Below, one piece after another: positions 1 through 6,306 of a stretch of 6,306 nt of DNA. The translations under genes and the position numbers were made by a program. The DNA comes from a virus (Duplodnaviria > Heunggongvirae > Uroviricota > Caudoviricetes). The first letter of the stretch is position 1; each line of letters starts with the position of its first letter. Location: the IMG/VR virus record IMGVR_UViG_2671180405_000009; one strand, 5' to 3'. The notes beneath the pieces are model-generated. The model had not been told where the DNA came from and ran no database searches. It saw only the letters and a list, made by a program, of their open reading frames with translations.

Positions 1-33
<33 letters not shown>

Positions 34-647
34 GCGAGATTTGAGACGAAGGTTGTTATTTGCACTGACACAATATTGTGTGGGAATGTCTGACTCCTTA
101 CCATCTCCTGTTCTGTGATGTTGTTTTGTTGCAGTTCCAGTGCTCTTTTTTCAGCACCAGAATGGTGCATTGTCGGTCAGGTTACGTAGTGAACCTCTGG
201 CAGGGGACTGATAATGCATCATTCTGGTGTTGTAAATATCTCTTCGGACAACTTACAAAATATTCTAAGCAAACCCCGGGAACACACTCTTAACTGCCTT
301 GGCTGGCGGTTTTTTGTACAGCGCTCGGTATGTGTGAGCTGGAAATCAGATTTTGCATGGACTGGAATCATGCTGTTATTTAGGGGCGAAGAACTGGCTT
401 TTTCTTCCGCCTTCTCACCAGTAACGATTAGAAAAATAATGAAATGCCCCCCTCCGGGGAGGAGGACCGTAGAAAAAAGGACCCGCCAGCAAAAACATTG
501 GGGATGAACAGCTTTCGCTACTCAGATTGCTGGCGGGTAAAGTTCCTCATGAATTAAGAATGCTACGCGATCTTTTTTAATGGAAATGAAAATTATTGTC
601 AATTAGTCGTGCGTGTTTTTTCATACAATATTGGTAAAGGTGATTCA

Positions 648-678
648 GGCCATCAGAGTTTTGCTGATGGCCTTTTTT
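648..678 (+). terminator. Rho-independent terminator (perfect 9-bp stem, 7-nt loop, T6 tract)
   Basis: Seen in sequence: ggccatcag (648-656), loop agttttg (657-663), ctgatggcc (664-672), then tttttt (673-678). The reverse strand has no matching T-run, so it is oriented for + strand transcription. Confidence 0.6.
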
Positions 679-713
679 CTTTCCGATAGCACAGGTCTGT
701 CGGGGGGCGGGAT

Positions 714-787
714 ATGTATCAGATGGAAAAAATATCAACAGGCATTGCCTACGGCACCTCCGCCGGCAGTGCCGGCTACTGGTTTTT
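714..787 (+). pseudogene. 5' fragment (about 24 codons) of a second phage-21-type pinholin gene, cut off at the N at 788
   Basis: Translation from ATG 714 is [24 protein letters not shown], paralleling the intact holin start [10 protein letters not shown]... including the Met1/Met4 dual-start pattern. 741-787 is an exact 47-bp copy of 1054-1100, and 723-787 aligns with 1036-1100 with a few mismatches. The upstream flank differs from that of the intact copy. Confidence 0.55.
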
Positions 788-788
788 N

Positions 789-913
789 GAACCGTTCTGA
801 CAGCTTCGGCTTTGAACTCTTTAGAGTAACGTTGGGTTTTTCTGCTCATTATTAGCTCCTTCTGATGCCATTCTATTTTAGGAAGGAGTGTCCGTTAAAC
901 TCAGGCTACCTCA
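789..913 (-). mobile_element. IS3-family insertion-sequence left end (terminal inverted repeat, leader and first 20 codons of orfA); IS600-like from memory; truncated
   Basis: The reverse complement of 904-913 begins tgaggtagcc (an IS3-family-style TG terminus). Minus-strand ATG at 849-847 encodes MSRKTQRYSKEFKAEAVRTV, a helix-turn-helix OrfA N-terminus I recall from IS600-type elements. The transposase reading stops making sense exactly at the N at 788. Confidence 0.55.
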
Positions 914-1026
914 GTGCTTTCCTTACTGTATATATCGTTTCGCCCGCTTTTGCGTTTTTTTCTTTTCAAATCCCTTTCATTTCTCAGTGTAAAACTACGC
1001 CATCCGTTATTTGCGGAGGTGAGGCT

Positions 1027-1248
1027 ATGAAATCCATGGACAAAATTTCAACGGGCATTGCCTACGGCACCTCCGCCGGCAGTGCCGGCTACTGGTTTTT
1101 GCAGTGGTTGGATCAGGTCAGTCCATCACAGTGGGCTGCGATTGGTGTGCTGGGAAGTCTGCTTCTGGGGCTTCTGACTTATCTGACNNNNNNNNNNNNN
1201 NNNNNNNNNNNNNNNNNNNNNNNNNGTAAGGCTGCGAGAGGTGAATAA
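1027..1248 (+). CDS. S: Phage-21-type class II pinholin/antiholin (S21-like), dual-start MKSM motif; interrupted by an assembly gap
   Basis: Translation [53 protein letters not shown]...KAARGE matches my recollection of S21 (two TM domains, Lys-rich C-terminus). RBS ggagg at 1015-1019, 7 nt before ATG 1027; second start ATG 1036. Stop taa 1246-1248 overlaps the endolysin ATG. Frame is preserved across the N run. Confidence 0.85.
1188..1225. other. Assembly gap or masked bases (38 N) inside the holin gene
   Basis: Seen in sequence: an uninterrupted run of n. It implies 14 unknown codons, where I recall about 12 residues in S21 at this position, so the gap length is probably an estimate. Confidence 0.95.
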
Positions 1249-1745
1249 TGTCGCCATCATTACGCAAGGCTGTTGCAGTTGCTATTGGTGGCGGGGCTGT
1301 TGCTATAGCATCTGTGTTAATCACTGGCCCAGGTGGTAACGATGGTCTGGAAGGTGTCAGCTACATACCATACAAAGATATCATTGGTGTATGGACTGTA
1401 TGTCACGGACACACCGGAAAAGACATCATGCCTGGTAAAACGTATACCGAAGCAGAATGCAAAGCTCTCCTGAATAAAGACCTTGCCACTGTCGCCAGAC
1501 AAATTAACCCGTACATCAAAGTCGATATACCGGAAACAACGCGCGGCGCTCTTTACTCGTTCGTTTACAACGTGGGCGCTGGCAATTTCAGAACATCGAC
1601 GCTTCTTCGCAAAATAAACCAGGGCTATATCAAAGGCGCATGTGACCAGCTACGTCGCTGGACATATGCTGGCGGTAAGCAATGGAAAGGGCTGATGACC
1701 CGTCGTGAGATTGAGCGTGAAGTCTGTTTGTGGGGGCAGCAATGA
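1248..1745 (+). CDS. R: SAR (signal-anchor-release) endolysin, T4-lysozyme-like muramidase (R21-like)
   Basis: 165-aa product with a Gly/Ala-rich N-terminal SAR helix ([20 protein letters not shown]) followed by the lysozyme catalytic region ([11 protein letters not shown]...GVWTVCHG, Glu-Asp-Thr). Closely resembles phage 21 R from memory. SD gaggtga at 1238-1244; start overlaps the holin stop by 1 nt; stop tga 1743-1745. Confidence 0.9.
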
Positions 1746-2191
1746 GCAGAGTCACCGCGATTATCTCCGCTCTGGTTATCTGCATCATCGTCCGCCTGTC
1801 ATGGGCTGTTAATCATTACCGTGATAACGCCATTACCTACAAAGAGCAGCGCGACAAAAACGCAAGAGAACTGAAGCTGGCGAACGCAACCATTACTGAC
1901 ATGCAGCAGNATGCACTCGATGCTAAATACACGAAGGAGTTAGCTGATGCGAAAGCTGAAAATGAAACTCTGCGCGCTGATGTTGCCGCTGGTCGTCGTC
2001 GGTTGCACATCAAAGCAGTCTGTCAGTCAGTGCGTGAAGCCACCACCGCCTCCGGCGTGGATAATGCAACCAGCCCCCGACTGGCAGACACCGCTGAACG
2101 GGATTATTTCACCCTCAGAGAGCGGCTGATGACGATGCAGATGCAACTGGAAGGGGCACAGGAGTATATCCGCACTCAGTGCATTAAGTAG
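1742..2191 (+). CDS. Rz: Rz i-spanin (inner-membrane spanin subunit)
   Basis: [49 protein letters not shown]... is near-identical to lambda Rz as I recall it: N-terminal TM helix plus coiled-coil periplasmic domain. ATGA overlap with the R stop; SD ggggg at 1732-1736. One ambiguous codon from the N at 1910. Confidence 0.9.
1947..2129 (+). CDS. Rz1: Rz1 o-spanin (outer-membrane lipoprotein), embedded in the +1 frame of Rz
   Basis: [24 protein letters not shown]... has a lipobox (LVVVGC) and a proline-rich stretch (PPPPP), as in lambda Rz1. SD aaggag at 1934-1939, 7 nt before the ATG. Lies entirely within Rz. Confidence 0.85.
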   Translation: MRKLKMKLCALMLPLVVVGCTSKQSVSQCVKPPPPPAWIMQPAPDWQTPLNGIISPSESG

Positions 2192-2233
2192 CCTTTTTAT
2201 CGTGGTAAACATTTCGCAGGGTATGAGGTATTT

Positions 2234-2584
2234 ATGCCATCACTAATCCCACGTGCCTGCCGTAAGCGTGGATGTGCAGGTACAACCACAGACAGTTCGG
2301 GTTACTGCGATAAACATCGCGGTGAAGGCTGGGTGCAGCACCAGCGCGGACTGAGCCGCCACCAGCGTGGCTATGGCTCAAAATGGACGGTGATTCGTGC
2401 CCGTATTCTGAAGCGCGATAAAGGTCTGTGTCAGTTGTGTCTGCGTGTCGGTGTGGTGAGCGAGGCGAAAACCGTCGACCACATCATCCCGAAAGCGCAT
2501 GGCGGAACAGACGCAGACAGCAACCTGCAGAGTCTGTGCTGGCCCTGCCATAAAGCGAAAACAGCGCGCGAACGAATCCGGTGA
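2234..2584 (+). CDS. Phage HNH endonuclease (terminase-associated type)
   Basis: 116-aa product with an N-terminal Cys cluster (CRKRGCAG...YCDKHR) and an HNH core (DHIIPKAHGGTDADSNLQSLCWPCHKAKT). SD tgagg at 2224-2228. Its position immediately upstream of terS is typical of HK97-like phages. Confidence 0.85.
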   Translation: MPSLIPRACRKRGCAGTTTDSSGYCDKHRGEGWVQHQRGLSRHQRGYGSKWTVIRARILKRDKGLCQLCLRVGVVSEAKTVDHIIPKAHGGTDADSNLQSLCWPCHKAKTARERIR

Positions 2585-2602
2585 TAATTATTCTCACTTG
2601 TA

Positions 2603-2667
2603 GGGAGGGGCGGGGCAAATCCCTGTGACCTGACGTCTTCCGGACTGCCCGCCCCATCGTTTTTTTA
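2603..2667 (+). promoter_or_regulatory. Putative cos / packaging-initiation region (G-rich and C-rich inverted blocks plus T7 tract) between the HNH and terS genes
   Basis: Seen in sequence: ggggcggg (2607-2614) can pair with cccgcccc (2648-2655) around a 33-nt loop containing a gacgtc palindrome, followed by ttttttt (2660-2666). A cos function is inferred only from the gene order and GC-rich character; I cannot identify the cut site. Confidence 0.3.
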
Positions 2668-2705
2668 TACCCGCGAAAAATGAAATTTAACCAGGAGTGC
2701 CGCAT

Positions 2706-3200
2706 ATGGCTGGAACGGCGGGGCGTTCCGGGCGTCGCCCCAAGCCAACGGCGCGCAAGGCGCTGGCCGGAAACCCCGGCAAGCGAGCCCTGAACAAAGA
2801 TGAACCTGTTTTTACGCCCATCAAAGGTGTTGAGCCACCAGAGTGGTTCGCTGAAGAAGATCTCCCTCTCGCCACGATCATGTGGCAACTGACAACCAAA
2901 GAACTCTGCGGTCAGGGCCTGCTGTGCGTGACTGACCTGGCGGTACTTGAGCGGTGGTGCGTGGCCTATGAGTTCTGGCGACGTGCCGTGAAAAATATTG
3001 CCATACAGGGCAACACCATCACCGGTGCAATGGGCGGCAGGGTCAAAAATCCGGAGCTGACCGCCAAAAAAGAACAGGAGTCCGAGATGAGCAGCACGGG
3101 GGCAATGCTCGGACTCGACCCCAGCAGCCGCCAGCGTCTGATTGGCCTGGCGGGGCAGAAGAAAGCCACTAACCCGTTTCTGAAAATTATCGAATCATGA
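2706..3200 (+). CDS. Terminase small subunit (P27-type, assigned from context)
   Basis: About 164-aa basic N-terminal protein ([27 protein letters not shown]...) directly upstream of, and translationally coupled to, the large subunit (ATGA overlap at 3197-3200). SD aggag at 2693-2697, 8 nt before ATG 2706. The GTG at 2697 is an alternative start. Confidence 0.75.
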
Positions 3201-4930
3201 GCCGGAAATCTTACCCCAACGTAAATGCTGCAAATCAGTATGCCCGGGATGTCGTGCGCGGAAAGATTGTTGCCTGCCAGTTTGTGATTCAGGCCTGCCA
3301 GCGCCATCTTGATGACCTGATGGCGGAAAAAAGTAAGTCGTTTCGTTACCGCTTCGACAAGGACCTGGCTGAACGGGCCGCGAAATTTATTCAGCTGTTG
3401 CCGCACACCAAGGGGGAGTGGGCATTCAAACGGATGCCCATCACGCTGGAGCCGTGGCAGCTATTTGTGATCTGCTGTGCGTTTGGCTGGGTCAATAAAG
3501 GCACCCGGTTGCGCCGCTTCCGGGAGGTGTACACCGAAATCCCCCGTAAGAACGGCAAATCAGCAATCTCTGCCGGTGTTGCCCTGTATTGTTTTGCCTG
3601 TGATAACGAGTTTGGCGCGGAAGTGTATTCCGGTGCCACGACAGAGAAACAGGCGTGGGAAGTCTTTCGCCCGGCGCGACTGATGTGTAAACGCACACCC
3701 ATGCTGACGGAAGCGTTCGGGATTGAGGTTAACGCCTCAAACATGAACCGTCCGGAGGATGGCGCGCGGTTTGAACCGCTGATCGGCAACCCAGGTGATG
3801 GTTCATCACCCCACTGTGCCGTGGTTGATGAATATCACGAGCATGCCACCGATGCGCTTTATACCACAATGCTTACCGGGATGGGGGCGCGACGTCAGCC
3901 ACTGATGTGGGCCATCACCACCGCCGGGTACAACATTGAGGGGCCGTGCTACGACAAGCGGCGGGAAGTCATCGAGATGCTCAACGGCTCGGTGCCTAAC
4001 GATGAACTGTTCGGGATCATCTATACCGTTGATGAAGGTGACGACTGGACCGGCCCGCAGGTGCTGGAAAAAGCCAATCCAAATATTGGCGTGTCGGTTT
4101 ATCGCGAATTTTTGTTAAGTCAGCAGCAGCGTGCGAAAAATAACGCCCGTCTGGCAAACGTCTTTAAAACAAAACACCTCAATATCTGGGTGTCGGCGCG
4201 TTCGGCGTATTTCAACTTGGTGAGCTGGCAGAGCTGCGAGGATAAATCACTGACCCTTGAGCAGTTCGAGGGGCAGCCGTGCATTCTGGCCTTTGACCTG
4301 GCGCGTAAGCTGGATATGAACAGCATGGCGCGACTTTATACCCGCGAGATTGACGGTAAAACGCATTACTACAGTGTGGCCCCGCGTTTCTGGGTACCGT
4401 ATGACACGGTGTACAGCGTCGAGAAAAATGAAGATCGACGGACAGCCGAACGCTTTCAGAAATGGGTGGAAATGGGCGTTCTGACCGTTACCGATGGTGC
4501 GGAGGTGGATTATCGCTACATCCTCGAGGAGGCCAAAGCGGCGAACAAAATCAGCCCGGTCAGTGAGTCACCCATCGACCCCTTCGGGGCGACCGGGTTG
4601 TCACATGACCTTGCTGATGAAGACCTGAATCCCGTCACTATCGTCCAGAACTTCACCAATATGTCCGATCCGATGAAAGAGCTGGAAGCAGCGATTGAAT
4701 CGGGACGTTTTCATCATGACGGCAATCCCATCATGACCTGGTGTATCGGCAACGTGGTCGGCAAAAACATGCCGGGTAACGATGATGTGGTGAAACCCGT
4801 CAAAGAGCAGGCGGAAAACAAAATCGATGGTGCAGTTGCGCTGATTATGGCGGTTGGCAGAGCCATGCTGTACGAGAAAGAAGACACGCTGTCTGACCAC
4901 ATTGAGTCCTACGGGATCCGCTCGCTTTAA
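3197..4930 (+). CDS. Terminase large subunit (ATPase plus RNaseH-like nuclease), HK97-like
   Basis: 577-aa product with a Walker A-like motif PRKNGKS (residues about 116-122), a Walker B-like motif [10 protein letters not shown], and a C-terminal acidic nuclease region ([10 protein letters not shown]). Size and position fit a terminase large subunit. Confidence 0.92.
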
Positions 4931-4941
4931 CTGAGGTAATT

Positions 4942-5124
4942 ATGATCATGCTGATTCTCGCGCCTCTGGTGGGCGTGCTGGGTGCGCTTTTGCTGGCGTA
5001 TGGTGCCTGGCTGATTTATCCCCCGGCGGGTTTTGTTGTTGCCGGGGCGCTGTGCCTGTTCTGGTCGTGGCTGGTGGCGCGATATCTCGACCGTACACGG
5101 CAGTCTGTCGGCGGAGGTAAATAG
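4942..5124 (+). CDS. Hypothetical small membrane protein (60 aa, two predicted TM helices) between terL and portal
   Basis: SD gaggt at 4933-4937 before ATG 4942. Product [60 protein letters not shown] has two hydrophobic helices and a basic tail. Codon usage is ctg/gcg-rich like its neighbours. Stop TAG 5122-5124 overlaps a GTG at 5124. Confidence 0.55.
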
Positions 5125-6280
5125 TGTTCTTTTCGGGATTATTTCAACGAAAAAGCGATGTGCCGGTGACCACGCCAGCAGAACTGCTGATGCTATCGGG
5201 CTGTCATACGACACCTATACCGGAAAGCGGATCAGTAGCCAGCGGGCCATGCGCCTGACGGCGGTCTATTCTTGCGTCAGGGTGCTGGCAGAGTCTGTTG
5301 GTATGCTGCCCTGCAGTCTCTACAAAATCAGCGGTACCCTGAAAACACGGGCGGTGGATGAACGACTGCATAAGTTGGTTTCGGCAAAACCTAATGGCTA
5401 CATGACACCGCAGGAATTCTGGGAGCTGGTTATTGTCTGCCTGTGTCTACGGGGGAATTTTTACGCCTACAAGGTAAAGGCACTGGGAGAAGTGGTGGAG
5501 CTTCTTCCGATAGATCCGGGCTGTGTGGAACCGAAGCTGAACAGCCAGTGGCAGCCGGTTTATCAGGTGACGTTTCCGGATGGTTCCGTGGATGTGTTGA
5601 CCCAGAATGAAATCTGGCATGTGCGCACCCTGACGCTGGATGGACTTGTCGGGCTGAATCCCATTGCGTATGCGCGTGAGGCCATTTCACTGGCAGCGGC
5701 AACCGAGGAGCACGGTGCCAGGTTGTTTAGTAATGGTGCGGTGACATCCGGTGTGTTGCGTACGGAACAAAAGCTCACGCCGGATGCTTACGAGCGTCTG
5801 AAGAAAGATTTTGAGGAGTGTCACACGGGGCTTGGCAATGCTCACCGCCCGATGATTCTGGAAATGGGGCTGGACTGGAAGTCGATGGCGCTGAACGCCG
5901 AGGACAGTCAGTTCCTGGAAACCCGCAAGTTTCAGCTGGAAGAAATCTGTCGTCTGTTCCGGGTGCCGTTGCACATGGTGCAGAACACCGATCGCGCCAC
6001 CTTCAACAATATCGAAGAGCTGGGGCTGGGATTTATCAACTATTCACTGGTGCCGTATCTGACCCGCATCGAACAGCGGATCAACACCGGACTGGTACGA
6101 AAAAGTAAGCAGGGCGTTTATTACGCCAAATTTAACGCCGGGGCGTTACTGCGCGGGGATATGAAGTCCCGTTTTGAAGCCTACGCCACCGGGATCAACT
6201 GGGGAATTTACTCTTCCAATGACTGCCGCGACCTGGAAGATATGAATCCGCGTCCCGGTGGTGTAATGCCGATCAGTTAA
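5124..6280 (+). CDS. Portal protein (HK97-family by context), with a reading-frame discontinuity near the 5' end
   Basis: A long ORF (frame of 5033, ending at taa 6278-6280) encodes the portal body. The best start is GTG 5124, with ggagg at 5113-5117 six nt upstream, but it is in a different frame that stops at tga 5256-5258. A 1-nt indel in 5124-5258 is therefore implied; the first in-frame ATG of the long ORF is far downstream (the Met in ...SQRAMRLTAVY...). Confidence 0.75.
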
Positions 6281-6306
6281 GGATCAGTTGACCGATCCAG
6301 TGGCTG

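Follow-up and report, generated by a model that had tools for sequence, protein, structure and literature searches.

The structure upstream of the endolysin in the window (the whole stretch of 6,306 nt that was analysed) is very probably a chimeric scaffold join, in which a contig of prophage P1 was spliced into the lysis region of prophage P3 in a short-read draft of Shigella sonnei. This species carries at least three defective lambdoid prophages (P1, P2 and P3) with a near-identical tRNA cluster, and all three have a common P21-type lysis cassette consisting of a pinholin, a SAR endolysin and Rz/Rz1. In the window, a 399-nt P1 contig with an IS600 end, the P1 spacer and the MKSMDK holin start lies between the P3 holin start and the remainder of the cassette. 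With a chimeric join, neither the holin nor IS600 is truncated, and no rearrangement is left to explain. The preliminary description had offered two readings, a chimeric join of contigs and a real rearrangement or recombination; the former is borne out by closed genomes and by the mosaic that the Ns delimit, and the latter is rejected. That this particular strain lacks the junction is inferred from the genomes of its relatives.

The window is a mosaic of four pieces, here called A to D, and the source changes exactly at the three N features. Its features are as follows.

1-787, plus strand: piece A, from prophage P3, in which the 3' end of a tRNA-Gly (1-33) is followed by a spacer of 680 nt and by 74 nt from the 5' end of the cognate holin
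714-787, plus strand: 5' part of holin 1 (class II, P21 S family, MYQMEK), ended by the contig end and not by biology
741-787, plus strand: repeat copy 1, the first 47 nt common to the holins of the different prophages
788: single N, read as the false scaffold join between piece A (P3) and piece B (P1)
789-913, minus strand: left end of IS600, 125 nt, with the IRL tip at 913 and orfA codons 1-20 at 849-789
914-1187, plus strand: remainder of piece B, with the P1-specific spacer of 113 nt (914-1026) and 161 nt of the 5' part of holin 2, including repeat copy 2
1188-1225: gap of 38 Ns inside the 3' part of the holin, real length 32 bases
1226-1909, plus strand: piece C, with the 3' end of the holin, a SAR-type endolysin (1248-1745) and the 5' part of Rz, all with P1/P2 alleles
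1910: single N in place of a 16-nt stretch of Rz, the second mosaic switch point
1911-6306, plus strand: piece D, with the 3' part of Rz including Rz1, an HNH endonuclease, the small and large terminase and a portal cut by IS4
6264-6306: IS4 end, the last 43 nt of the window

Comparison of the window with itself confirmed the exact 47-nt repeat that had been pointed out before, with 741-787 identical to 1054-1100 and the two starts 313 nt apart. Leftward, the similarity continues at 85% to 701/1014. A chance origin of a 47-nt exact repeat within 6.3 kb is excluded. The Met-x-x-Met motif of the putative dual start, reported for both copies, is likewise present, as ATG TAT CAG ATG at 714 (MYQMEK) and ATG AAA TCC ATG at 1027 (MKSMDK). 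The N at 788 is indeed followed by 125 bp of an IS3-family left end on the minus strand, which belongs to IS600; orfA starts at 849 and only about 20 of its codons are present in the window. What does not hold is the claim of an 'intact holin' downstream, since holin 2 (1027-1248) is broken by the 38 Ns at 1188-1225. The holin copies of the window are a 24-codon fragment and a gene broken by Ns. A tRNA search and an Rfam scan of the window gave no match; the tRNA-Gly sequence at 1-33 is a 3' fragment, recognised via a closed genome. Thirty nucleotides upstream of the holin 1 start, a strong terminator-like hairpin is found at 647-683, with a 10-bp stem followed by a T-run. As expected, this hairpin fits a late operon transcribed by a Q-modified polymerase.

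Closed S. sonnei chromosomes were reached by an exact-protein look-up of the endolysin and the large terminase of the window. They include Ss046 (CP000038.1) and 53G (HE616528.1), the identities of which are confirmed in PMC5447701. Complete E. coli genomes alone were misleading, with the right half of the window only about 92% identical to them, and it was the Shigella chromosomes that resolved the case. In all eight closed S. sonnei loci (L014-L021, including Ss046), window positions 1-787 and 1036-6306 occupy overlapping and collinear positions, for example 7109-7895 and 7831-13110 in L021, and therefore base 787 directly joins base 1101. Deleting 788-1100 (313 nt) from the window yields the closed-genome sequence over the junction, ...CTACTGGTTTTT followed immediately by GCAGTGG.... 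The gene order of P3 is Q antiterminator, ORF6N protein, four tRNA genes of which the last is tRNA-Gly, the 680-nt spacer and one MYQMEK holin, followed by endolysin, Rz, HNH, small and large terminase and the IS4-cut portal. In L021, the tRNA-Gly lies at 7067-7141, and its final 33 nt open the window. The full-length P3 holin (L021 7822-8037) matches PF04971 over the whole of its approximately 71 aa, with E=1.5e-35. In the closed genomes, the MYQMEK and MKSMDK holins are identical from the base equal to 741 onward to the end of the gene, so that the true repeat is longer than 1 kb.

These comparisons reverse the roles that the preliminary description gave to the two holins. The first start, which it called truncated, is the cognate P3 holin and runs into 1101 in the closed genomes. 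The second start, taken there as that of the intact gene, and the IS600 stub form a foreign piece from P1. The question raised there of whether the lysis cassette keeps its native promoter context can be answered for each prophage: the true locus P3 keeps the native order of Q antiterminator, tRNA cluster and holin, and a complete IS600 between tRNA cluster and holin is real in P1.

At the other end of the window, the portal gene (5033-6263) is cut by IS4 about 100 nt short of its normal end, a cut that Ss046 shares with other closed S. sonnei genomes. An IS4 transposase gene comes next in L021 after the portal cut, and the intact portal of E. coli (L003) differs from the window after 6263. 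Beyond IS4, the closed S. sonnei genomes have host genes or further IS elements, so that the prophage is a defective remnant.

Piece B is 100% identical over 789-1187 to prophage P1 (L004-L006, L009, L010 and L012), where the sequence runs left into the rest of IS600 and right into holin, endolysin and Rz. Its part 914-1187 is also 100% identical to E. coli CFSAN029787 (L002 7001-7275). The remaining part, 789-913, is 100% identical to 9548-9672 of L004, L005 and L012, which is the left end of the IS600 upstream of the P1 holin. The complete element at the P1 site is 1264 bp long (L008 8409-9672), with a 3-bp GTG target duplication; elements with 99.8% identity to it are called 'IS3-like element IS600 family transposase' by PGAP. 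A complete IS600, an IS3-family element of Shigella, has orfA (100 aa, PF01527), orfB (272 aa, rve domains) and TG...CA termini. With no more than the terminal 125 nt, the window has no complete IS600, whereas the same site in closed genomes has one. Therefore, the truncation of IS600 in the window is a product of assembly, with a contig ending in a repeat. An empty site without IS600 is found in E. coli CFSAN029787 (...GATAGAGTGCTTTCC...). At position 879, the stub in the window has a T, as does the same-site IS600 of L004, L005 and L012 (most closed genomes examined), and a C is present in other IS600 copies and in the same-site copies of L008 and L011.

In finished genomes, 182 nt separate the P1 tRNA-Gly from the complete IS600 downstream of it, and another 113 nt separate this element from the P1 holin that follows. 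On chromosome CP060117.1, the P1 holin is located near 2,908,416 and the P3 holin near 3,988,512, about 1.08 Mb apart as computed from the look-up ranges, and the two prophages have the same orientation. The two holin types are likewise found in separate prophages of E. coli CFSAN029787, 374 kb apart. The third prophage, P2 (L007), has a MYQMEK holin and a spacer as in P3. The full-length MKSMDK-type holin from closed genomes matches PF04971 with E=1.1e-35.

The other pieces can be assigned in the same way. Piece A is 99.7% identical to P3 (L014-L021), and its two differences (213 and 216) are P2 alleles. Piece C is 100% identical to P1 and P2 (L004-L012) with seven mismatches to P3 (L014-L021), and piece D is again P3, 100% identical over 1911-6263 (L014-L016, L019 and L021). 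The endolysin, which Pfam assigns to PF00959, has P1/P2 alleles (those of P3 include C at 1279 and T at 1292), so that even an N-free stretch of coding sequence in the window does not represent the P3 gene. Six of the seven differences between piece C and P3 (1279-1626) are inside the endolysin gene. According to the alignment, the 38 Ns at 1188-1225 stand for 32 nt in the homologues; the gap sizes are thus wrong. The N at 1910 stands for 16 nt, AGACAGCGTGATGTTA in P3 versus CGCCAGCGTGATGCTG in P1/P2, with identical flanks, and judging from these sequences it has the appearance of an assembly bubble between repeat copies. A further draft, L013, likewise has an N at this position.

The ends of the pieces all lie slightly inside repeats, namely the tRNA cluster, the holin, IS600 and IS4. 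At its left end, the window begins within the tRNA cluster common to P1 and P3, 34 nt ahead of the first difference between these two, at 35. The last base that only holin 1 has is 740, and piece A ends 47 nt past it. In IS600, the copy-specific base is 879, and piece B begins another 90 nt inside the element. The right end of the window is 43 nt into IS4. The window is probably one whole scaffold bounded by repeats. Within piece A, the alleles of different prophages are mixed, with 213A and 216G as in P2 and 322C as in P3, and a sister draft, L013, has the reverse mix. This mix suggests that two copies of a repeat have collapsed in the spacer itself. An inverted repeat of 31 nt (148-178 / 206-236) has both 213 and 216 in one of its arms.

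The chimeric join can be pictured as follows. During assembly, the cassette common to the prophages would have collapsed. Read pairs from the P3-specific spacer would then have had their mates in the common holin and endolysin, held only on the P1-derived contig, and on those mates the scaffolder would have linked A ahead of B. Gap filling may have grown A 47 nt into the common holin and B through IS600 to 90 nt beyond base 879, and the two extensions, unable to merge, would have left one N. One de Bruijn k-mer size for all piece ends was considered and rejected, as the overhangs of 34, 43, 47 and 90 nt fit no single k; the longer ones are therefore ascribed to read-based gap filling. A single N is presumably what SSPACE and GapFiller leave when extensions fail to merge. 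The GapFiller paper (PMC3446322) was examined for a statement on such a single N and none was found; it describes gaps as being extended from each edge and closed only when the extensions merge.

According to PMC5320598, the Sanger pipeline consists of Velvet, SSPACE and GapFiller, its greedy tools SSPACE and GapFiller 'can lead to false joins', and S. sonnei is the most fragmented species of this pipeline, with a mean of 405 contigs. The CXB... accessions are S. sonnei drafts from Holt et al. 2012 (PMC5447701). The window would come from a pipeline of the Sanger type, a link that runs via sister contigs with similar accessions. Its structure resembles the false joins described for such tools (PMC5320598, PMC3446322) in having Ns at the joins, contig ends inside repeats, flanks from separate loci, wrong gap sizes and disagreement between sister assemblies, and no essential difference was seen.

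This disagreement is found in two sister drafts. In L013 (CXCY01000141.1), the same two regions are joined, here with base 707 linked through two Ns to base 909, and 28 Ns stand where the window has 38. The other draft, L022 (CXCJ01000178.1), was found by a look-up of the 97-aa ORF at 214-507. It begins at the same base, is 100% identical over 1-787, and then continues straight through the rest of holin 1, without an N and without an IS. Thus, each of the three drafts has a structure of its own, and all finished genomes examined are uninterrupted. An inherited rearrangement would give one and the same junction, so the differences between the three drafts argue against inheritance. The junction between A and B, either exact or with 0-30 nt between the halves, was searched for in 21 loci without a match. 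It was also absent, in the same forms, from 185,579 species-representative genomes and a metagenome collection, a negative that weighs less than the closed-genome comparison, as S. sonnei may be scarce among species representatives. Of the 4305 blocks in the collection that contain the large terminase, most are on contigs of 2-10 kb; the P3 locus therefore usually breaks at the same repeats in short-read assemblies.

A real scar would mean that illegitimate recombination joined the P3 holin, broken internally after codon 24, to an IS600 broken 125 nt in from its left end, so that holin and IS would both be truncated and a further holin would have come from P1. The structure is present in the sequence as written, S. 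sonnei is IS-rich with heavily rearranged prophages, and L013 joins the same two regions. However, we regard such an event as highly improbable. The junction itself is an N, and IS-mediated deletions begin at the end of the IS and not 125 nt within the element. Both breakpoints are at most one read length from the last copy-specific bases, 740 and 879. The breakpoints in L013 differ from those of the window, L022 has an unbroken holin on an identical piece A, and the junction is missing from all closed genomes and public collections searched. It is accordingly very unlikely that the isolate truly has a holin stub and a 125-nt IS600 stub before a second holin, with the N as one miscalled base. 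The Ns could also be ambiguous or masked bases in a continuous and correct sequence; two of the three N features are single and the holin and Rz reading frames remain open over the Ns. This reading has a negligible probability and, for masked or ambiguous bases as such, is refuted by the length mismatches, since the N at 1910 stands for 16 nt and the 38 Ns at 1188-1225 for 32 nt. Moreover, the two sides of 788 come from loci about 1 Mb apart.

An arrangement that is real in part would have P1-derived B and C placed before P3-derived D by recombination or gene conversion between prophages, with only the join of A to B as an artefact. Such an event would agree with B and C having P1 or P1/P2 alleles followed by P3 sequence, and the cassettes are alike enough for recombination. 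Nevertheless, there is little chance that it took place, for several reasons. The switch from C to D is at an N replacing exactly the 16-nt variable stretch, which has the look of an unresolved bubble. C has the majority alleles, found in P1 and P2 among the three copies, as is expected of the consensus of a collapsed repeat. As P1 and P3 have the same orientation about 1.08 Mb apart, a simple crossover would presumably delete a megabase. Finally, the P3-specific piece A would be left without a holin partner. With a chimeric scaffold join, the reading that we prefer, draft Shigella scaffolds may hold contigs spliced in from other prophages. Gene content, 'pseudogenes' and promoter context that are read over an N in IS- or prophage-rich DNA are not trustworthy. 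Annotation of the window would yield a truncated holin and a truncated transposase as well as a duplicated lysis start, and none of the three is real. The truncated holin start joined to an IS end, as first described, is not a real feature, and its value is that of a caution only. The real biology is already visible in the closed genomes, i.e. several defective lambdoid prophages of S. sonnei with near-identical P21-type cassettes and one real insertion, the complete IS600 between the tRNA cluster and the holin of one prophage (P1).

The genes themselves are ordinary: P21-type holins, lysozyme, Rz/Rz1, HNH and terminase. Both holin types of the window are like that of the P21 lysis cassette, with PF04971 ('Bacteriophage P21 holin S') and a Met-x-x-Met start. 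As in P21, a PF00959 lysozyme comes next, its start overlapping the stop of the holin, and Rz has an embedded Rz1. In contrast to P21, the S. sonnei prophages are defective, IS-cut remnants, and the P3 holin starts with MYQMEK instead of MKSMDK, so that its longer product is without the Lys2 of the S21 antiholin. Lys2 is the source of the extra positive charge of the S21 antiholin, so that an antiholin form of the MYQMEK variant may be in question. This variant (P3/P2; 714-725 versus 1027-1038) is common in E. coli prophages.

Two further observations concern the other drafts. Around 912-931 of L022, a 20-nt IS element end, identical to the element ends at 3081-3100 and 14190-14209 of L021, is present between the 3' end of the holin and the endolysin, without an N. 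This insert looks like a gap-filling error that left no visible mark. In three unscaffolded short-read contigs from other S. sonnei isolates (L026, L027 and L031), the spacer changes to TGCCCCTATTAAGTTGTC... as soon as the G-run at 701-707 ends, which is 7 nt short of the holin start, and piece A of L013 also ends at 707. The position equal to 707 of the window may be another insertion hot spot.
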